Positions 48,760-64,000 of a DNA stretch of 64,000 nucleotides are shown in pieces (position 1 is the stretch's first letter; every line of letters begins with the position of its first letter). The stretch is from Rhodospirillales bacterium (GTDB lineage: Bacteria > Pseudomonadota > Alphaproteobacteria > Rhodospirillales > Defluviicoccaceae): assembly GCA_046348775.1 (NCBI GenBank), contig JAXMDO010000004.1, forward strand, positions 1,832 through 65,831, in the 5' to 3' direction. Below the pieces are notes generated by a model that saw nothing but the letters and a program-made list of their open reading frames with translations, was not told where the DNA came from and made no database searches. The position numbers were made by a program, and so were the translations under genes.

Positions 48760-49167
48760 TCAAGGCGCAGCGCGAAAGGGATCGACGACGCGCAAGCCTC
48801 CATTGAATACCATGCCGTGCTGCAGGTCCTCCGACCACAATGTATCGCAACCGGCGTGAAGCGCTGAAGCAGCGATCATGGCATCATAGGTGGAAAGTCC
48901 GTATCGCTCGGCGAGGTCCAGTCCGGTTTCGTGGGTTTCAATGGTGAGAGGATGAATCGTCAGCAGGCCGCGTAGGATGGTCAGAAACGCATGCGTATCG
49001 GCCCAAGACATCTGCATCTTCCGACGCGCGACATTGGTCAGTTCATTGAGAACCTGCACACTGATCGCGCCGCCCGCCGCAACAACCGCCTCCGCCCGAT
49101 CAGCCTTCGCCGCATCGCCTGATGCCATATAGACGAGGACATTGGTGTCGAAAAAGCTAGCGGGCAT
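48760..49167 (-). CDS. vapC: PIN-domain toxin VapC (module 1)
   Basis: MPASFFDTNVLVYMASGD...VQVLNELTNVARRK...YDAMIAASALHAGCDTLWSEDLQHG. PIN acidic residues are present. It overlaps the upstream antitoxin gene by 11 nt. Confidence 0.8.
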   Translation of the reverse strand: MPASFFDTNVLVYMASGDAAKADRAEAVVAAGGAISVQVLNELTNVARRKMQMSWADTHAFLTILRGLLTIHPLTIETHETGLDLAERYGLSTYDAMIAASALHAGCDTLWSEDLQHGMVFNGGLRVVDPFRAAP

Positions 49168-49387
49168 TCGCCTCGTCTCTGTCGAACTTAAAATCAGCAG
49201 GAAGGCGACCACGGAAGGCGTGAAGGCGCCTCAATAGCTCCTCACGTCCCGGCTTTCGCGCAACACCGAACTGCCGGGCGTTAGCGATACGAATTTCAAC
49301 CTCATCGCCTTCTTTGAGCCCAAGCGCTTCGACCACGGCGGCAGGAAGGCGGAGAGCGAGGCTGTTTCCCCACTTGGCGACCCGCAT
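49157..49387 (-). CDS. vapB: AbrB/SpoVT-type antitoxin VapB (module 1)
   Basis: From the ATG at 49387: MRVAKWGNSLALRLPAAVVEALGLKEGDEVEIRI, a swapped-hairpin AbrB/MazE fold signature. Confidence 0.8.
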   Translation of the reverse strand: MRVAKWGNSLALRLPAAVVEALGLKEGDEVEIRIANARQFGVARKPGREELLRRLHAFRGRLPADFKFDRDEANAR

Positions 49388-49402
49388 GTTTCGGCTCTCC
49401 GT

Positions 49403-49432
49403 TGGATATACGCTGAACCAGCTGTATATCCA
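49403..49432. promoter_or_regulatory. Perfect 9-bp inverted repeat just upstream of vapB (module 1), a candidate autoregulatory operator
   Basis: tggatatac-N12-gtatatcca. It lies 16 nt upstream of the vapB ATG on the minus strand. Confidence 0.4.
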
Positions 49433-49627
49433 GGACAAGTCGAGGTCAACGATCGCGGTGGTAGGGGCGGACGATGCCGGCCAGTCGCTCTTCGATGGCG
49501 ACGCGAAAACACCGTCCGGTCTGTCGGGCCGAAGGGAGGCTGTCGGGCGACGGCAATTACAACATTCTCGTCCTTATCGAAGATCGCCTAAAGGTCCCGT
49601 TCGCCCTCAGATCGGAAGGCGCGATGT

Positions 49628-50029
49628 TCATCCGTACGGCAGTCGGTGCTGCGGGATATCGAGTTGTTCGAACTCGGGGTCCTTGTGGACGAGAATCGCC
49701 GGGCAGAGGGACGCCGCAGCGGCGATCCAGGCATCGGCAACGGACAAGCGGTGCATTGCCTTGATCTCCGCCGCCTTCTCGAGCAGCGCCGTGTCCTCGT
49801 GGACGACGACCAGCGGCAGTGAAAGGCATTGCTCATAGGCCAAGCGTGCCCGCACCCGACCTTCATCCTGCCAGACCCGGTAGAGCACCTCCATCAGGGA
49901 GATGAAACAGACCCGACAGGGCGTGCCGTTTTGCCTGCCGGCATCCAGTTGGGCAGCGACATCATCGGCGCCCGCCTCGTCATCGCGTAACGTCAGTAGC
50001 GCCGACGTGTCGAGCAGGTAAATACTCAC
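49628..50029 (-). CDS. vapC: PIN-domain toxin VapC (module 2)
   Basis: MSIYLLDTSALLTLRDDEAG...SLMEVLY...LSVADAWIAAAASLCPAILVHKDPEFE. There is a 4-nt overlap with the upstream antitoxin gene. Confidence 0.8.
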   Translation of the reverse strand: MSIYLLDTSALLTLRDDEAGADDVAAQLDAGRQNGTPCRVCFISLMEVLYRVWQDEGRVRARLAYEQCLSLPLVVVHEDTALLEKAAEIKAMHRLSVADAWIAAAASLCPAILVHKDPEFEQLDIPQHRLPYG

Positions 50030-50262
50030 CCCCGACGCTCATCGACCGCCAGCTCGCGGCGACGGTCGTCGAGCAGGCGGTCGGTGCTGCCTCCCGTTCC
50101 CTGACCGCGGAAGGCCGAGATCGGATCGGATTTCACCGGCACGACGACGATACGATCGCCCTCCATAACCCATTCAAGTCGGTCCGCCGGCCCGAGATGG
50201 AAGCGCTTGCGGACCGGTGCAGGAATGACGGTTTGTCCACGTGCGGTGATTGTGCTGCGCAT
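50026..50262 (-). CDS. AbrB/MazE-type antitoxin (module 2)
   Basis: From the ATG at 50262: MRSTITARGQTVIPAPVRKRFHLGPADRLEWVMEGDRIVVVP, a SpoVT/AbrB-like domain. Confidence 0.75.
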   Translation of the reverse strand: MRSTITARGQTVIPAPVRKRFHLGPADRLEWVMEGDRIVVVPVKSDPISAFRGQGTGGSTDRLLDDRRRELAVDERRG

Positions 50263-50497
50263 CTGCTTCTCCGGCCGGTACGAATTGCATTTTATTAAGA
50301 AAGATAATTCACTGACAGTGCCGACGCAATCTGAGGTCGTGCCGACACGCTGTTCCACCGACAGGGCGGGGAACTCCCGTTGCTATTCCCGTCCGACCGC
50401 CGCCTGTCCCTCGGCGTGGCCGATCCCCATATCAGCTTCCATCCGCAACAGAGGGGTGGTCGGGCGAGGGCATCGATCGCCTTGGGGATACAACAGC

Positions 50498-56721: not shown

Positions 56722-57344
56722 CGACGATTCCCTTTCACCCATGCAGCTTGCCGGCTACCGGTCCTGGTCCCTGCTGTCAAGCCGCCGGTCGGCAAGGTTC
56801 GTACGGGGATCGAGGGTGGCGTTGCCGGCTCACAGACGGCCCGCAAAGGGTCGGGAAATGAAATACAGTCGGCGCACCAAGCGACAAAGAACCAGGAAAA
56901 CGGCCGAAGGCGGTTCTCGAGCCAAGGTGCGGTCGCGGGTTAGATTCAGTCCGTCTTCCCACTTTGAAACGGGGAGGCGCTTTGTTAAGGTGATCAAAAC
57001 GCGGCCCCATCGATCAATCCCACAAAAATTCGATGGAAGGCCGTCAATAACAAATACCGGGCCGCCCGGTTTCCATGCGCGTGGATATTGGGCCGGCTGA
57101 CGGTGCAAGGGAGGAGCCACGCGATGTTGCATCGCCAAGCAAGCCATGTTTGCCGGCCGTTGCCGGCCTGTCTCAGGCCGGGGGACGCGTCTGAGACATG
57201 GGGGACCGCCCCGTGAGAAGGACCCCCCTAACGGTCCCGCCGGCCGTGCTCCAATCCCGCCGAAACCGCGTGTGAGACCCCGGCCGTGTCGGCCATCGCG
57301 CCGTCGTGGCGCATCCAAACCAGCTAGCGGAGGAGGTGAGAAAG

Positions 57345-59060
57345 ATGCCCACGTGGCCACAAGTCTACGCGCCGATCGGCGGCAATCTCTGGCTATCGGC
57401 GCTGGTGGCGGTGATCCCGATCGTCTTTTTCTTCGTTGCCCTCGCCGGATTGCGCATGAAGGGACATGTCGCCGCGCTGATCACGGTGGCGCTCGCCGTC
57501 CTCGTCGCCGTCATCGCCTACGGGATGCCGGTCGGCATGGCGATCGCCGCCACCATCTACGGCTTCCTTTACGGATTGTGGCCGATCGCCTGGATCATCG
57601 TCGCCGCCGTGTTTCTTTATAAGCTCACGGTGAAGACCGGCCAGTTCGAGGTCATCCGCGCCTCGGTGCTGTCGATCACCGCCGACCAGCGGCTGCAGAT
57701 GGTGCTCGTCGGCTTCTGCTTCGGCGCCTTCCTGGAAGGCGCGGCGGGGTTCGGGGCGCCGGTGGCGATCACCGCCGCGCTTCTCGTCGGCCTCGGCTTC
57801 AATCCGCTTTACGCCGCCGGCCTCTGCCTGATCGCCAACACCGCCCCGGTTGCGTTCGGCGCCCTCGGCATTCCGATCACCGTCGCCGGCAAGGTAACCA
57901 ACATCGATCCGTTCATCATCGGTCAGATGGCCGGCCGCCAGCTACCGCTGCTGGCGTTTTTCGTGCCGTTCTGGCTGGTCTTCATCATGGACGGTCGCCG
58001 TGGGGTTATCGAGACACTTCCTGCGGTGGCCGTCGCCGGTGGCGCCTTCGCTATCACCCAGTTCTTCACCTCCAATTTCTGGGCCTACGAGCTGCCGGAC
58101 ATCACCTCCGCCCTGGTCAGTCTCATCGCCCTTTCCCTGTTCCTGAAAGTCTGGCAGCCGGCGCACAGTTTCTCCTTCCAGACCAGCACCGGCCAGAAGA
58201 GCACCGGATTTGCCCCCGGCGGCTCCGCCGGCGCGGCGGCGATGCCGACGGCACCGGCCTCGGGCCAGTACTCGCTGGGCGAAATCATCAAGGCCTGGTC
58301 GCCGTTCATCATCCTGACGATCATGGTGACCATCTGGACGCTTCCCTCGTTCAAGGCGCTGTTCGCTCCCGACGCCAGCCTCGGCGCCTGGGTGCTGTCC
58401 CTGCACATCCCCGGCCTCGACAATCTCGTCATCCGCGGCGAGCCCATCGTGCCGAAGCCGACCCCCTACGCCGCCGTCTACAAGTTCGACATCCTCGCCG
58501 CCACCGGCACTTCCATTCTTGCCGCCGCCGCCGTCTCGGCGTTCATCCTCAAGGTGCGTCCGGGGATGTTCTTCAGCACCCTCGGCGAGACGTTCGTCGA
58601 ACTGGTGAAGCCGATCTTCACCATCGGCCTGGTGCTGGGCTTCGCCTTCATCGCCAACTATTCGGGGATCTCGTCGACGCTCGGCCTGGCGTTCGCCGCC
58701 ACCGGCCATCTGTTCCCCTTCTTCTCGCCGTTCCTCGGCTGGCTCGGCGTCTTCCTCACCGGCTCCGATACCGCCAGCAACGCGCTGTTCGCCAACCTGC
58801 AGAACGTCACCGCCATGCAGATCGGCGTCAATCCGGTGCTCACCGTCGCCGCCAACACCACCGGCGGCGTCACCGGCAAGATGATCTCGCCGCAGTCGAT
58901 CGCCGTCGCCTGCGCCGCGGTCGGTCTCGTCGGCAAGGAGTCCGATCTGTTTCGCTTCACCCTCAAGCACAGCCTGTTTTTCGCGGTGATCGTCGGCATC
59001 ATCACCTACATCCAAGCGTACATTCTGCCGGGGATGGTGCCGATCGCGGCCGGTCACTGA
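57345..59060 (+). CDS. lctP: L-lactate permease (LctP family)
   Basis: From the ATG at 57345, preceded by GGAGGAGG: [30 protein letters not shown]...[24 protein letters not shown]...[18 protein letters not shown]. Confidence 0.9.
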
Positions 59061-59218
59061 GCCGCTTTCGCCCGAAGTCCGGTCGGCCGGGGGAGCGGCC
59101 GGCCGGGTTCCGTCGGCCGGGCCCACCGCCCGGGGCTTCACCGGGCCGCGAACCCGGCAACGGACGGGGCGGGCACAAGAGACAAGCTCGCCCGCTTCGC
59201 TCATGAGGAGGCAACGCC

Positions 59219-62122
59219 GTGGCACAGGCCATCACCGCAAAGGCGATTACCAACGAAGACTTCGCGCCCGCCACGCCCCACGCGGCGCTGATCCGGACCC
59301 TGGAGACGCTGCTGCCGCGCTCGCGCATCGTCACCGATCCGCTGCGCCGCCTCGCCTATGGCACCGATGCCAGCTTCTACCGGCTGGTGCCGGAGGTGGT
59401 CGCCATCGTCGACACCGAGGCGGAGGTGCAGGGGCTGTTGCGCATGTGCCGCATGTACGGGACGCCGGTGACCTTCCGCGCCGCCGGGACCAGCCTCTCC
59501 GGCCAGGCGGTCACCGATTCCGTTCTTTGTCTCATGGGCGACGGCTGGGGCGGCGTCGCCGTCGCCGATGATGCGGCGACGATCCGCCTGAAGCCGGGCG
59601 TCATCGGCAGCGAGGCGAACCGCCATCTGGCGCGCTTCGGCCGCAAGATCGGCCCCGACCCGGCGTCGATCAACGCCTGCAAGGTCGGCGGCATCGCCGC
59701 CAACAATGCGTCCGGCATGTGCTGCGGCACCGCCCAGAACAGCTACAACACGCTCGCCGCCATGCGCATCATCTTCGCCGACGGGTCGCTCCTCGATACC
59801 GGCGATGCCGGCAATCGCGACGCCTTCCGCCAGACCCACCGCTACCTGGTCGACGGCATCGCCGCGCTGCGCAGCGAGATCCTGGCCGAGCCCGAACTGG
59901 CCGCCCGCATCCGCCGCAAGTTCGCCATCAAGAACACCACCGGCTACAGCCTCAACGCGCTGGTCGATTTCGACGATCCCATCGACATCCTGCAGCACCT
60001 GATGATCGGCTCCGAGGGGACCCTGGGGTTCATCTCCGAGATCACCTACCGGACGGTGCCCGAATACGCCCACAAGGCGACGTCGCTGATGATGTTCGAC
60101 GGCGTGGTTTCCGCCTGCGAGGCGGTGATCGCCCTGAAGCGCACCCCGGTCGCCGCCGTCGAGCTCATCGATCGCGAGGGTCTGCGCTCGGTGGAGACCA
60201 AGCCGGGGCTGCCGACCTTCATCCGCGAGCTGCCGCCGGGTGCCACCGCCCTCCTCGTCGAGACCCGCGCCGAAGACGCCGCCACCCTGGCGGCCAACAT
60301 CGCCGCCATCGGCCAGGCCGTCGCCGGCGCGCGGACGCTGCGGCCGATCCAGTTCACCACCGATCCGGCCGAGTTCGAGCGTCTGTGGAACATCCGCAAG
60401 GGCCTGTTCCCGTCGGTGGCGGCGATGCGGCAGACGGGCACGCCGGTGATCATCGAGGACGTGGCGTTTCCCATCGAGAGCCTTGCCGCCGCTACCGCCG
60501 ACCTGCAGGGGCTGTTTGGCGAGTACGGCTTCGCCGACACCTTCATCTTCGGCCACGCGCTGGAAGGCAACCTGCACTTCGTCATCACCCCCGACCTGTC
60601 GTCGCCGGCCGAGATCGACCGCTATCGCCGCTTCATGGATGCGGTCACCCATATGGTCGTCGAGGGCTACGACGGCTCGCTGAAGGCCGAGCACGGCACC
60701 GGCCGCAACATGGCGCCCTTCGTCGAACTGGAGTGGGGTGCCCAGGCCTACGATCTGATGCGCCGGATCAAGCTGCTGCTGGATCCGGACGGGCTGCTCA
60801 ATCCGGGCGTCATCCTCAACGACGACCCGGAGGTCTACATCAAGAACGTCAAGCCGATGGCCGCCGCCGACCCCCTGGTCGACGGCTGCATGGAGTGCGG
60901 CTTCTGCGAGAAGATGTGTCCATCGCAGGGGATGACCTTCACCCCCCGCCAGCGCATCGTCGGCTGGCGGGAGATATCCCGGCTGGCCGGCCCTGGCGCC
61001 GACCCTGGCGACGCGGCGACGCGGGCCGCCTACCTGGACACCTATGCCTACCAGGGCCTGGAGACCTGCGCCGCCTGTGGCTTGTGCGCGCTCGCCTGTC
61101 CGGTCGGCATCGAGACCGGCCTGTTGACCAAGAAGCTGCGCGGGGCGGGGCAGACCGCCGTCTCCCGGCGGGTCGCCGGCTTCTTCGGCGACCACTACGG
61201 CACCGCCATGGCCGGCGTCCGCGAGGGATTGCGCCTGGTCGATCTGGCCGCGCGGGCGTTCGGTTCGGCGCGCATGGAGAGCATGGGCGGGGCGGCCCGC
61301 CAGTGGTCCGGCGGCCGGTTGCCGGCGTGGCGGCCGTCGATGCCGCGCGCCGCGGCGCTGCGGACGCAGGCCCCCGCCAACGGCGCTGGCCTTGCCGCCG
61401 ATGCGCCTACCGTCGTCTACCTGCCGGCCTGCACGTCGCGGACGATGGGCCCCGCCGGCAACGAGCCCGACGCCACCCCCTTGCCGCAGAAGACGATGGC
61501 GTTGCTGCAGAAGGCGGGCTTCCGCGTCGTCCTGCCGGATGGCCTCGGCAATCTCTGCTGCGGCCAGCCGTTCGAGAGCCGCGGCCTCTACGACGTCGCT
61601 GACACCAAGTCGAGGGAAGTGGAGGAAGCGCTGCGAACGGCCAGCGAGGACGGCCGGCTGCCCATCGTCTGCGACACCAGCCCATGCACCTTGCGCCTGA
61701 AGCAGAAGCTGGCGGAGTCGTTGCGGCCGGTCGACATCGTCGAGTTCATCCACGATCAGGTGCTGCCCCGGCTCGAGATCGAAAAGCAGGCGACGGCGGT
61801 GGCGCTGCACCTCACCTGTTCCGGCCGCCGGATGGGGCTGGAGGGCAAGCTGCAGGCGATCGGCCGCGCCTGCGCCGCGGAGGTGGTGATGCCGGCGGGC
61901 GTGCTCTGCTGCGGCTTCGCCGGCGACAAGGGCTTCAACACCCCGGAGCTGAAGGCGCACGCCCTGCGGACGCTGAAGGCGGAGGTGCCGGCGGGATGCG
62001 CCGGCGGCTATTCCCACAGCCGCACCTGCGAGATCGGCCTCTCCGACGAGTCCGGCGTCCCTTACCGCTCCATCGTCTACCTGGTCGACCAAGCCAGCCG
62101 ACGGAAGCAGAGCGCGGGGTAA
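59219..62122 (+). CDS. Large FAD-binding plus Fe-S oxidoreductase, D-lactate dehydrogenase-like (FAD-oxidase N-terminus, 2x[4Fe-4S], CCG domains)
   Basis: 967 aa. FAD PCMH-type N-terminus (RAAGTSLSGQA), FAD-oxidase C region (HALEGNLHF, KAEHGTGRNMAPF), ferredoxin motifs CMECGFCEKMCP and CAACGLCALACP, and cysteine-rich CCG-type repeats at the C-terminus (NLCCGQPF, VLCCGFAGDKG). It lies directly downstream of lctP. Confidence 0.8.
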   Translation: MAQAITAKAITNEDFAPATPHAALIRTLETLLPRSRIVTDPLRRLAYGTDASFYRLVPEVVAIVDTEAEVQGLLRMCRMYGTPVTFRAAGTSLSGQAVTDSVLCLMGDGWGGVAVADDAATIRLKPGVIGSEANRHLARFGRKIGPDPASINACKVGGIAANNASGMCCGTAQNSYNTLAAMRIIFADGSLLDTGDAGNRDAFRQTHRYLVDGIAALRSEILAEPELAARIRRKFAIKNTTGYSLNALVDFDDPIDILQHLMIGSEGTLGFISEITYRTVPEYAHKATSLMMFDGVVSACEAVIALKRTPVAAVELIDREGLRSVETKPGLPTFIRELPPGATALLVETRAEDAATLAANIAAIGQAVAGARTLRPIQFTTDPAEFERLWNIRKGLFPSVAAMRQTGTPVIIEDVAFPIESLAAATADLQGLFGEYGFADTFIFGHALEGNLHFVITPDLSSPAEIDRYRRFMDAVTHMVVEGYDGSLKAEHGTGRNMAPFVELEWGAQAYDLMRRIKLLLDPDGLLNPGVILNDDPEVYIKNVKPMAAADPLVDGCMECGFCEKMCPSQGMTFTPRQRIVGWREISRLAGPGADPGDAATRAAYLDTYAYQGLETCAACGLCALACPVGIETGLLTKKLRGAGQTAVSRRVAGFFGDHYGTAMAGVREGLRLVDLAARAFGSARMESMGGAARQWSGGRLPAWRPSMPRAAALRTQAPANGAGLAADAPTVVYLPACTSRTMGPAGNEPDATPLPQKTMALLQKAGFRVVLPDGLGNLCCGQPFESRGLYDVADTKSREVEEALRTASEDGRLPIVCDTSPCTLRLKQKLAESLRPVDIVEFIHDQVLPRLEIEKQATAVALHLTCSGRRMGLEGKLQAIGRACAAEVVMPAGVLCCGFAGDKGFNTPELKAHALRTLKAEVPAGCAGGYSHSRTCEIGLSDESGVPYRSIVYLVDQASRRKQSAG

Positions 62123-62196
62123 CCGCATTTGGGTTCGGGCTGACCTTCCGCCATAATGGACCCCATTGAGCGGGGAAGGCGAGGGACGGGCCGCCG

Positions 62197-64000
62197 ATGC
62201 CGGAAGCCGGGGGAACGAAAGAGACTTTAGCGCCAAGCCCGGCGCGCGACCTGATCTTCGTGAGCTACAGCCACCGCGACAAGCTTCACCTGGAAGACTT
62301 TTTGCTGGTGGGAAAGCCCTATTTCGCGCCCGACCGGCTGGTCGTGTGGTCCGATCGGGAGATCCGAACAGGATACAAGTGGCTGCCGGCGATTGAAGAG
62401 GCGCTGGCTCGCGCTCGCTTGAGCATCTTACTGATAAGCCCTCACTTTTTCGCCTCCTCGTTCATTCAAGATAGCGAGCTGCCGCCCATCTTTAGTGCGG
62501 CGGATCAGGGCGCCTGCGCCGTAATTCCCATCCATGTCAGCGCGTCCGGCTATCGACGTACGCGCCTTTGCGATTACCAGTCTCCCCACGATCCAGCCCG
62601 TCCCCTCGATCTCATCTCGCCGAAGTCGAGACGAAATCCCATCTGGGTGAGGATCTGGGACAAAATCAGGGCCGAGGCCGAGGCGGCGTGGGGGGCGGAT
62701 TTCGACCGGGTAGCACCCGCTGTTGCCACCTATTCAGCGCCGGTCGCACCGCTTATGGAGGCCGACCGCTTCGGCCCTTTGCACGGCGTGCCCGACCACA
62801 AGCCTCATTTTCTCGCCCGCGATGAGCTGGAGCCGCTGGTGGCGGCACTCCTCGGCTCGACCACCGGTGCGGTGGGGTTGATAGGCGCGCCGATCGGCCT
62901 GCACGGCATGGGCGGCATCGGCAAGACCGAACTGGCCATCGCCCTCTGCCACGACGCTCGCGTCTGTCGCGCTTTCCCGGATGGCCTCTATTGGCTCACC
63001 CTCGGGCAAAGTCCCGACCCGCTGCGCCTTCTCTCCGACCTCGCCGCGTTGTCCGGCGAGACCCCCGCCTTCGCCAGTGTCGTCCAGGCCCAGGAGGCCC
63101 TGCGCCAGCGTTTTCGCGACCGGGCGGTCCTCCTCGTTATCGATGACCTGTGGCGGCTTTCGGACGCTCGCGACCTCGCCGTGCTCGGTCCAAAAAGCCG
63201 GATGCTGATTACGACGCGCGATGCCAGCCTGCTCACGGCACTCGCCGCGCGGGAGATCTCGCTTGGCGTGCTCGGCCTGGATCTGTCGCTCAGGCTGCTC
63301 GGCAAGTGGAGCGGGCAGTCGCCGCCTCTGCCCGAAGCCGCTGGCGCCGTTGCCGAAGAGTGCGGCCGACTGCCGCTGGCGCTCGCCCTCGCCGGCGCCC
63401 GCGTCCACGACGGGGCGTCATGGGAGCAGGTCGTGGCGGCGTTGAAGGAGGGCGATCTCGAGTTCCTTGATCATCCGCACGGCAGCGTCCTCAAGGCGCT
63501 CCGGATGAGCGTCGCCGCCCTGCCGCCCGACAACGCGGCGCGTTACGGCGAACTGGCGGTATTCCCGGAGGACGTGCCGGTGCCGGTGGCCACCGTCGCC
63601 CGGCTGTGGGCGCACACCGGTGGTCTCGCACCGCGTGACACCGGCCGGCTGCTCGACGATCTCGCCCGCACGAGCCTGCTGTCGCGCACGACCGATCAGG
63701 CCGGTCGCCCGGCCCTCAGCTTCCACGACCTGCAGCGGGATTTCCTCAAGCTCGATGCGGCCGACCTTCCGCAGTTCCACCGCCGCCTCCTCGACGCGCA
63801 TCGCCCGGCGGCCGGCTGGGCCGATCTTCCGTCCGATGAGCCTTACCTCTGGACCTGGCTCGCCTGGCATCTCGCCGAGGCCGAACAAGAAACCGAGCTG
63901 AAAGCTCTATTGATGGATCCGGCTTGGCTCAAGGCGAAGCTGGCCAACACCGACATCAACGCTCTCATCGCCGATTATAATTACTTGCCGGCCGACGAAG
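62197..64000 (+). CDS. TIR-domain / NB-ARC (APAF-1-like STAND NTPase) fusion protein, 5' 601 codons (continues beyond the window end)
   Basis: Hand translation from the ATG at 62197 shows no stop through 64000.
- TIR block: DLIFVSYSHRD...VVWSDREIRTGYKW...RLSILLISPHFFASSFIQDSEL.
- NB-ARC motifs: P-loop GMGGIGKT (62905-62928), Walker B LLVIDDLW (63130-63153), MLITTRD, GRLPLALALAG (63364-63396) and MHD-like FHDL (63721-63732).
- APAF-1-type helical region: LWTWLAWHLAEAE...DINALIADY.
It is absent from the supplied ORF track because it has no in-window stop. Confidence 0.85.
   Translation, partial: MPEAGGTKETLAPSPARDLIFVSYSHRDKLHLEDFLLVGKPYFAPDRLVVWSDREIRTGYKWLPAIEEALARARLSILLISPHFFASSFIQDSELPPIFSAADQGACAVIPIHVSASGYRRTRLCDYQSPHDPARPLDLISPKSRRNPIWVRIWDKIRAEAEAAWGADFDRVAPAVATYSAPVAPLMEADRFGPLHGVPDHKPHFLARDELEPLVAALLGSTTGAVGLIGAPIGLHGMGGIGKTELAIALCHDARVCRAFPDGLYWLTLGQSPDPLRLLSDLAALSGETPAFASVVQAQEALRQRFRDRAVLLVIDDLWRLSDARDLAVLGPKSRMLITTRDASLLTALAAREISLGVLGLDLSLRLLGKWSGQSPPLPEAAGAVAEECGRLPLALALAGARVHDGASWEQVVAALKEGDLEFLDHPHGSVLKALRMSVAALPPDNAARYGELAVFPEDVPVPVATVARLWAHTGGLAPRDTGRLLDDLARTSLLSRTTDQAGRPALSFHDLQRDFLKLDAADLPQFHRRLLDAHRPAAGWADLPSDEPYLWTWLAWHLAEAEQETELKALLMDPAWLKAKLANTDINALIADYNYLPADE

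Follow-up and report, generated by a model that had tools for sequence, protein, structure and literature searches.

The window analysed here, a stretch of 64,000 nucleotides from a Rhodospirillales bacterium of the Defluviicoccaceae (assembly GCA_046348775.1, contig JAXMDO010000004.1, positions 1,832 to 65,831 of the forward strand), ends inside a gene that starts at ATG 62197 (+) and encodes an N-terminal TIR domain, an NB-ARC-type STAND ATPase and, past the edge of the window, two WD40 propellers. The gene of 1293 codons is intact, and the window holds its 5' 46%. That the domains are correctly identified (TIR, STAND ATPase of the Apaf-1 type, propellers) is practically certain. The nucleotide-binding module is nearest to Apaf-1 and not to the TIR-bearing NLR receptors of plants (TNLs), as judged from sequence and predicted fold, and the product is in effect a bacterial Apaf-1 orthologue in which TIR replaces the CARD. 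It typifies a family that is already on record and whose proteins are probably immune receptors encoded by one gene.

With regard to the extent of the gene, the original prediction had described a frame of 601 codons that the supplied track of open reading frames (ORFs) omits. Indeed, no stop follows ATG 62197 up to base 64000, the last base of the window, and the frame is missing from the list because the list comprises closed frames only whereas this one overruns the window end. Since DNA of 66% GC is rich in long frames, an open frame by itself is weak proof of a gene, and it is the profile matches reported below that carry the proof; homologues of the 601-residue product were found down to E = 1e-183. 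A search of 1.84 billion representative proteins recovered P0068, a protein of 1293 aa whose residues 1-601 are 100% identical to the window frame. An exact look-up assigned P0068 to the short Logan contigs L083 and L084 (runs SRR26348420 and SRR26348419). Each of them begins with 1981 bases that agree with window positions 62020-64000 at 0 mismatches, and both carry the ORF to its stop, i.e., a frame of 3882 nt with its end at window-equivalent position 66078, outside the window; the gene is therefore complete to 66078. A break in the frame soon downstream, which had been named as an outcome that would speak against a functional gene, is not what the two independent read-assembly contigs reveal. 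An exact 51-mer scan of metagenome contigs for an extension of the window gave 0 matches, and a word-indexed protein search missed the identical protein, its top match being 50% identical by BLASTP and 55% in a MAFFT alignment.

Upstream lie a gene for lactate permease (lctP; Pfam E = 2.7e-203) and then one for a 967-aa FAD-oxidase/4Fe-4S/CCG protein resembling D-lactate dehydrogenase (dld-like). Both identities, taken over from the original prediction, agree with Pfam, as does the position of the upstream stop (62122) with the proposed spacer of 74 nt. Scanning of this spacer (62123..62196) yielded neither a consensus promoter nor an intrinsic terminator. A purine-rich GAGGGA lies ~13 nt 5' of ATG 62197, and the start MPEAGGTKE recurs in the 76%-identical orthologue P0069. 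Two antisense ORFs within the gene, 62734-63408 and 63418-63888, were rejected as shadows, since their GC content at third codon positions (GC3) is lower and the frame that encloses them has strong homology. An antisense open frame of 1011 codons also runs opposite the dld-like gene (59201-62236, -), a reminder that long chance ORFs occur in GC-rich DNA.

Pfam profile matches were judged throughout against Pfam's own cut-offs. The features of the gene are given below by window position, strand, nature and basis; NBD, HD1, WHD and HD2 stand for nucleotide-binding domain, helical domain 1, winged-helix domain and helical domain 2, and NOD for the nucleotide-binding module that they make up.

62123..62196, + strand: spacer of 74 nt from the dld-like stop (62122) to the ATG (sequence)
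62197..64000, + strand: TIR / NB-ARC (NBD-HD1-WHD-HD2) / double WD40-propeller gene, first 601 of 1293 codons (open frame; P0068; Logan contigs)
62245..62706, + strand: TIR domain, residues 17-170 (Pfam TIR_2, family TIR profile, AlphaFold2 model)
62476..62478, + strand: GAG codon of Glu94, putative TIR catalytic glutamate (alignment with AtTIR, PdTIR and AbTir)
62707..62784, + strand: TIR-NOD linker, residues 171-196, partly of low confidence (AlphaFold2 pLDDT falls to 57 near residues 171-180)
62893..63513, + strand: NB-ARC nucleotide-binding domain and HD1 (Pfam NB-ARC, PF00931, 1.4e-19, 70.8 bits against a cut-off of 23.5)
62905-62928, + strand: Walker A GMGGIGKT, residues 237-244, the P-loop lysine being Lys243
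63130-63153, + strand: Walker B LLVIDDLW, residues 312-319, with LLVIDD at 312-317 (sequence)
63202-63222, + strand: sensor-1 TTRD (339-342) within MLITTRD, residues 336-342 (sequence)
63364-63396, + strand: GLPL-type motif GRLPLALALAG, residues 390-400 (sequence)
63544..63747, + strand: WHD, residues 450-517 (Pfam APAF-1-like_WHD with 21.2 bits, under the cut-off of 27; aligns with Apaf-1)
63721-63729, + strand: MHD-type motif FHD, residues 509-511, within FHDL, 509-512 (sequence)
63766..64000, + strand: HD2 (APAF-1 helical domain), from residue 524 to the window end, followed by two WD40 propellers outside the window (Pfam APAF1_C, PF17908, 35.8 bits against a cut-off of 22.8)

The original prediction had read from the letters a full series of NB-ARC motifs, an APAF-1-type helical region and a TIR-like domain with a catalytic Glu94 (GAG 62476-62478). 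Each motif is found at the residue given for it, the glutamate aligns with those of AtTIR, PdTIR and AbTir, and TIR_2, NB-ARC and APAF1_C all score above the Pfam cut-offs, so that a failure of the TIR and NB-ARC profiles to reach threshold, another outcome named in advance as unfavorable, did not occur. Having Walker A, Walker B, the NB-ARC profile, sensor-1, GLPL and the MHD-type motif, the protein falls into the AP-ATPase/NB-ARC clade of STAND NTPases. In an alignment of 61 relatives, K243 is conserved in 58/59, D316 and R341 each in 61/61, and P393 in 58/59 sequences, while the MHD-type residues H510 and D511 are present in 44/45 and 43/45, respectively. The HD2 region contains the motifs LWTWLAWHL (residues 551-559) and DINALIADY (residues 586-594).

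Among solved structures, human Apaf-1 (1z6t) is the top match by phmmer (E = 3e-27), with query residues 197-583 aligned to Apaf-1 118-515, i.e., across NBD, HD1, WHD and HD2. Plant helper and sensor NLRs follow with values of 1e-12 to 1e-4, the TNL Roq1 reaching just 7e-5. An AlphaFold2 model of residues 1-601 (pLDDT 89.8, pTM 0.85) has ADP-bound Apaf-1 (1z6t) as its top Foldseek match (E = 1.3e-18, 435 columns, root-mean-square deviation 3.9 A), and the next matches are NRC, RPP1, ZAR1, CED-4, Dark and Avs3. A classification as SARP/AfsR-type regulator was considered and rejected: the NCBIfam matches FxSxx_TPR, AfsR and HaaT are far under their cut-offs and reflect the shared NB-ARC domain, and no DNA-binding family occurs in the Pfam matches.

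The TIR domain is recognized by Pfam TIR_2 over residues 20-116 (nt 62254-62544) with 31.8 bits against a cut-off of 28. It features the motifs DLIFVSYSHRD (residues 18-28) and ILLISPHFFASSFIQDSEL (residues 77-95), and this part of the AlphaFold2 model alternates strands and helices with high pLDDT. A TIR profile built for the family matches the Paracoccus TIR protein PdTIR (3h16, 4e-7), AtTIR (4e-6), Brucella BtpA/TcpB, Acinetobacter AbTir, which was deposited as 'NAD(+) hydrolase' (1.5e-5), a TIR-SAVED effector and the plant proteins RPP1, ROQ1 and RUN1. Glu94 aligns with the glutamate of 'LDEL' in AtTIR, 'KELDGL' in PdTIR and 'YELDGL' in AbTir, a position that we take to be that of the catalytic glutamate in TIR NADases. 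Together with S23, Y24, D53, G59, W62 and S87 it is invariant in 29/29 full-length relatives, and it is present in 37/44 members of a wider, partly fragmentary set. PADLOC matched the protein at the level of the TIR domain only (SAVED_TIR 2.5e-8, ThsB 3.7e-7 and PDC-S66). The TIR fold and the conserved glutamate occur together as in enzymatic TIR domains, and the domain may cleave NAD+. The linker between TIR and NOD varies in length among the homologues, with long insertions in P0001 and P0013.

Beyond the window, residues 690-1290 of P0068 are covered by Pfam matches to WD40/beta-propeller families; the TEP1 propeller models match weakly, and there is no LRR family among the best 25 of the 31 Pfam matches to P0068. 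An AlphaFold2 model of residues 600-1293 (pLDDT 85.4, pTM 0.79) consists of three helices and then 56 beta-strands, and the predicted fold of the C-terminal half is a pair of WD40 beta-propellers with ~14 four-stranded blades. Ranked by E-value, Foldseek matches of this model are generic tandem propellers, whereas the top query-normalised TM-scores belong to Apaf-1 (3j2t 0.62, 3shf 0.57, 3sfz 0.55). Of the WD40 or TPR repeats that had been expected past base 64000, it is accordingly the WD40 type that exists. The blades of P0068 are divergent from one another. Near-identical blades, e.g., ...TLEGHT..V.AVAVLADGRRALSGS.D.TLRLWDL..., were observed within L081:5448-7289, L001:12330-14083, P0002 and P0006.

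Compared with known systems, Apaf-1 (1z6t, 3sfz, 3j2t) is the best match among solved structures in both sequence and fold. The two share the order NBD-HD1-WHD-HD2 followed by two WD40 propellers, the P-loop and the MHD-type His-Asp pair, although overall identity is only ~25% and the propellers of the window protein have ~7+7 blades by strand count, while those of Apaf-1 have 7+8. The N-terminus carries TIR_2, and no CARD is among the Pfam matches; the protein therefore represents an Apaf-1-like chassis rather than a caspase-activating apoptosome, and no recruitment of caspases is implied. It likewise differs from those bacterial Apaf-1 orthologues that have been highlighted for carrying caspase-like proteases (PMC13581612).

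The label 'plant-TNL-like' given in the original prediction holds for the order of domains only, the chassis, which includes HD2 and two propellers, being of the Apaf-1 type. Plant TNLs (RPP1 7crc, ROQ1 7jlv) also combine an N-terminal TIR with a catalytic glutamate, NB-ARC and a repeat sensor, and a TIR enzyme switched on by oligomerisation would be expected in both; the sensor of the window protein, however, consists of WD40 propellers instead of LRRs and C-JID, HD2 is present, and the sequence relationship is much weaker (Roq1 7e-5 vs. Apaf-1 3e-27). To our knowledge, plant NLRs do not possess HD2, nor do we know of any reason to expect an EDS1-type downstream pathway in bacteria. With Avs/AVAST and bNACHT proteins the window protein shares the combination of N-terminal effector, STAND NTPase and C-terminal sensor in one polypeptide; some Avs proteins contain TIR, and Avs3 is a distant fold match (1e-6). 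It differs from them in belonging to the AP-ATPase/NB-ARC clade and not to Avs1-5/NACHT, in matching neither the Avs nor the bNACHT models of PADLOC, in lacking NACHT among its Pfam matches, in having a WD40 propeller instead of a TPR-like sensor and in its location outside a defence island. Fungal NLRs of the HET-E/HNWD type resemble it in joining a NOD to a WD40 sensor. Near-identical WD40 repeats are typical of the fungal HNWD proteins and occur in several bacterial relatives as well, whereas the blades of the window protein are divergent and its N-terminus is a true TIR and not HET. Finally, the animal proteins TEP1, NWD1 and NWD2 comprise a TIR-like domain (DUF4062), a STAND ATPase, an APAF-1-like helical domain and WD40 repeats (10.64898/2026.05.01.722283), but the window protein has a classical TIR_2 with no match to DUF4062, and its ATPase is NB-ARC and not NACHT.

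The family to which the gene belongs is widespread. Colinearity from TIR through NOD is shared by at least 84 of the top 150 representatives (50% identity clusters), most of them with 1200-1350 aa, and a TIR-NB-ARC-WD40 family of this breadth is neither rare nor new. Relatives were found in Defluviicoccus vanus, Acidobacteriota, Planctomycetota, Chloroflexota, Gemmatimonadales, Actinomycetes and WS1, and relatives of the NOD alone in Cyanobacteria, Methanotrichaceae archaea and others. First descriptions of the architecture reportedly date from Koonin and Aravind (2002) and Leipe et al. (2004), to which the next three papers refer. A review from 2022 lists TIR located N-terminal to the nucleotide-binding domain and followed by LRR, WD40 or TPR repeats in plants and bacteria (PMC9153377), TIR domains 'fused to AP-ATPase domains' have been reported (PMC7159879), and 'bacterial orthologues of Apaf-1' with beta-propeller sensors appear among defence-associated STANDs (PMC13581612). 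TIRs in Avs proteins and standalone TIR proteins have been treated as NAD+-depleting effectors (10.64898/2025.12.03.692087). This record agrees with the earlier remark that bacterial TIR-NB-ARC fusions are known mainly from comparative genomics.

In a plasmid collection, only the NOD part was matched, at <=44% identity and with no TIR, and a plasmid-borne status of the window protein is thus not supported. Neighbouring genes vary among six loci, and there is no recurrent partner gene. Housekeeping neighbours surround P0001, P0005 and the genes of D. vanus and L056, and the P0046 relative (L082) lies in an integrase/transposase region. In L017:6690-8435, from an Actinomycetes metagenome-assembled genome, a TIR-NOD gene directly follows a NACHT-FGE-sulfatase STAND gene, such that two NLR-like genes are adjacent. 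Several loci depart from a single continuous frame: in Defluviicoccus vanus Ben 114 (L001:9971-14083) three frame changes are seen and ~14 WD40 blades are spread over two frames, L081:3383-7289 has a frame change in the first blade and then 14 further blades, and downstream of P0001 a separate WD40 ORF of 426 aa begins after 86 nt. In these relatives the gene may have become a pseudogene or be genuinely split, or the near-identical repeat DNA may contain sequencing errors.

The sole part of the finding that goes beyond expectation is the mosaic of the sensor at a syntenic locus. The orthologue P0069 (1289 aa) resides on the 146-kb metagenome contig L085 in the order lctP, dld-like gene, an extra DHOR gene, TIR gene and 4HBT thioesterase gene. 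LctP and the dld-like protein of the window are 87% and 83% identical to their counterparts on L085, and the 74 residues readable downstream of the gene in L083 are 73% identical to the 4HBT thioesterase of L085. The additional DHOR-family gene (417 aa, L085:8504-9757) lies between the dld-like and TIR genes, where the window has the spacer of 74 nt; tblastn found no trace of it there.

Between the window lineage and P0069, identity amounts to 69% for TIR, 72% for the linker, 81% for NOD and 54% for the HD2 region, vs. 20-27% for the propellers and 47% for the last blade. In a sliding comparison, residues 526-570 are still 80% identical, and by residue 661 the value has sunk to 23%. On the DNA level, similarity is 76% over the first 1794 nt of the gene, ends near codon 593, is lost for ~2 kb and is seen again in the final 54 nt and in the gene that follows. 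The values of dN/dS relative to the L085 orthologue are 0.19/1.36 (~0.14) for TIR and 0.15/0.75 (~0.20) for NOD, and effector and switch are thus under purifying selection; the corresponding values are 0.08/0.48 for lctP and 0.10/0.45 for dld, and the comparison of the sensor is saturated. GC3 is 0.78-0.86 in codons 201-600, declines to 0.54-0.61 and 0.47-0.53 and reaches 0.28 in codons 1101-1200. This break inside the gene (L083:1978-4059, window-equivalent 63997-66078) coincides with the loss of similarity to the orthologue, in which the drop in GC3 is milder (from 0.84 to 0.59-0.73); in three other relatives, total GC does not drop over the WD40 part.

The divergence of the sensor reflects either replacement of a cassette from foreign DNA or very fast evolution in situ. 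One could imagine vertical inheritance of a TIR-NOD 'engine' that keeps its housekeeping site (lctP-dld-X-4HBT), with a sensor cassette of ~2 kb, comprising the end of HD2 and both propellers, swapped as a whole by recombination with foreign donors of lower GC content, an exchange that would retarget the receptor while the gene stays put. We advance this proposal tentatively and regard it as rather doubtful. It is compatible with the similarity that stops near codon 593 and resumes in the last 54 nt, with the fall in GC3 from ~0.8 to 0.28 and with a donor search that came back empty, i.e., no protein more than 27% identical emerged when a source of the low-GC sensor was sought. A diversity-generating retroelement or shuffling of blades was considered and set aside, as the 4.5 kb available contain no significant direct or inverted repeats, while a template farther away is possible. 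The TIR-NOD part itself (62197-63999) has a GC3 of 0.78, below that of the neighbouring genes at 57306-62122 (lctP 0.89, dld 0.92), and its dS relative to the orthologue (0.75-1.36) is above that of lctP and dld (0.45-0.48). Lower GC3 and higher dS hint at a different history of this part or at weaker codon selection.

What, then, does the protein do? We consider it reasonably probable that it is a self-contained receptor and effector of the NLR type in which assembly of a ring switches on a TIR NADase and growth stops. The intact ORF, the domains, the kinship to Apaf-1, the conserved catalytic residues, purifying selection, the lack of a conserved partner and the fast-diverging sensor all support such a function. 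The sequence of events, NAD+ as substrate and a phage as trigger are modelled on Apaf-1, plant TNL resistosomes, Avs and TIR NADases, and the TIR enzymes on which the analogy draws include SARM1, TIR-SAVED, TIR-STING and SPARTA. At rest, the protein would be a closed, ADP-bound monomer with its NOD kept closed by the propellers. A ligand, most probably a phage protein, would bind to the propellers and free the NOD, so that nucleotide can be exchanged at the Walker A/B site, whereupon the NOD may assemble into a ring in an ATP-dependent manner. The TIR domains clustered in this way would form active NADase sites around Glu94, NAD+ would be destroyed, and the infected cell would arrest or die.

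A number of observations weigh against this reading. The 64-kb window contains no recognizable defence island, no mobile-element genes adjoin the TIR gene, and several relatives likewise occur in housekeeping contexts. None of the whole-system models of PADLOC matched the protein, and experimental work on bacterial TIR-NB-ARC-WD40 proteins was not found in a literature search that covered subscription journals incompletely. The outcome of TIR activity could be NAD+ depletion, a signal of the cyclic ADP-ribose (cADPR) type or nucleic-acid cleavage, and which of these applies cannot be read from sequence. In addition, close relatives are interrupted in D. vanus, L081, L017 and L056, and the family could often be dispensable unless sequencing error is the cause.

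Among the alternatives, the TIR domain might produce a small signalling nucleotide (a cADPR isomer or ADP-ribose conjugate, as in Thoeris and plant TNLs) for an effector encoded elsewhere, which would make the protein a sensor and signaller and not an executioner. The weak match to the ThsB model (3.7e-7), the presence of the cADPR-isomer-producing AbTir among the nearest solved relatives and the many types of Thoeris with varied effectors (10.64898/2025.12.03.692087) are all in keeping with a signalling TIR. We nevertheless judge it unlikely, as a conserved effector neighbour is absent from the loci examined, and the gene itself is flanked by the dld-like gene upstream and the 4HBT thioesterase gene downstream, with no cognate Ths effector; the thioesterase gene recurs at the orthologous locus and is an ordinary neighbour. 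Furthermore, the survey of Thoeris cited above excludes STAND-fused and standalone TIRs as likely NAD+ depleters.

Equally improbable in our estimation is a receptor for an endogenous or community signal (stress, damage, non-kin) that drives regulated cell death or dormancy, comparable to the apoptosis-like 'conflict systems' of aggregating or multicellular bacteria. Such a role would suit a chromosomal, syntenic locus with housekeeping flanks in two related genomes, a family distributed over Planctomycetota, Acidobacteriota, Chloroflexota, Cyanobacteria, Actinomycetes and the floc-forming Defluviicoccus, the link that Kaur et al. draw between AP-ATPase/TIR systems and multicellular prokaryotes (PMC7159879) and the fact that Apaf-1 senses an endogenous protein. 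It would, however, call for a conserved sensor, yet the sensor is the fastest-changing part (20-27% vs. 81% for NOD), a pattern expected of receptors that track variable foreign targets, and in every related STAND family for which ligands have been tested, it is phage proteins that are sensed (PMC13581612). That the gene is a relic, decaying or inactive, or that the low-GC downstream part is an assembly chimera, is very improbable: this would accord with the frame changes in D. vanus, L081, L017 and L056, with the anomalous composition of the 3' half (GC3 to 0.28) and with a full-length sequence known from two short contigs only, but the frame of 3882 nt stays open through AT-rich DNA in which stops are frequent, the contigs are identical in two sequencing runs, the final blade and the downstream gene realign with the orthologous locus, all catalytic motifs are intact with dN/dS of 0.14-0.20 for TIR/NOD, and the sensor is predicted to have ~14 regular blades (pLDDT 85).

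Regarding the wider neighbourhood, the original prediction had stated that no obvious defence island surrounds the gene, and housekeeping genes in fact make up the window, two VapBC-like pairs excepted. The genes present include rpsB, tsf, frr, cdsA, dxr, rseP, bamA, fabZ, dnaE and ABC transporters as well as guaB, guaA, ilvA and genes for pirin, a DJ-1 family protein and DUF808. GuaB shares 80-82% identity with proteins from 'Rhodospirillales bacterium' and 'Defluviicoccus sp.', which places the host as an uncultured member of this order of Alphaproteobacteria. PADLOC matches elsewhere in the window to mad3 and mad8 (five members each) and to AriA were taken as cross-matches of ABC ATPases, the count being that of five ABC-transporter proteins. 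The two VapBC-like pairs are arranged in tandem at 48760-50358 (-), between guaA and the pirin gene and ~12 kb upstream of the TIR gene, and consist of the following ORFs.

48760-49212, - strand: PIN-like ORF of 150 aa (by eye)
49157-49438, - strand: AbrB/SpoVT-like ORF, partner of 48760-49212 (by eye)
49628-50029, - strand: PIN ORF (Pfam 9.8e-16)
50026-50358, - strand: AbrB-like ORF, partner of 49628-50029 (by eye)

As an annotation of the window the result is an ordinary one, a real and well-classified member of a catalogued family. Bacterial TIR-NB-ARC-WD40 proteins unite the chassis of the animal apoptosome and the TIR executioner of plant TNLs in one polypeptide, and the family offers a natural test of whether the NLR and apoptosome machinery of eukaryotes descended from single-gene immune receptors of prokaryotes. 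The intact, motif-complete gene and its syntenic orthologue, which differ mainly in the sensor, form a convenient pair for addressing the ligand, a ring-switched NADase and the swapping of sensors. If cassette exchange proved true, the locus would resemble an allelic series of plant R genes or fungal NLRs, set in a bacterial chromosome.

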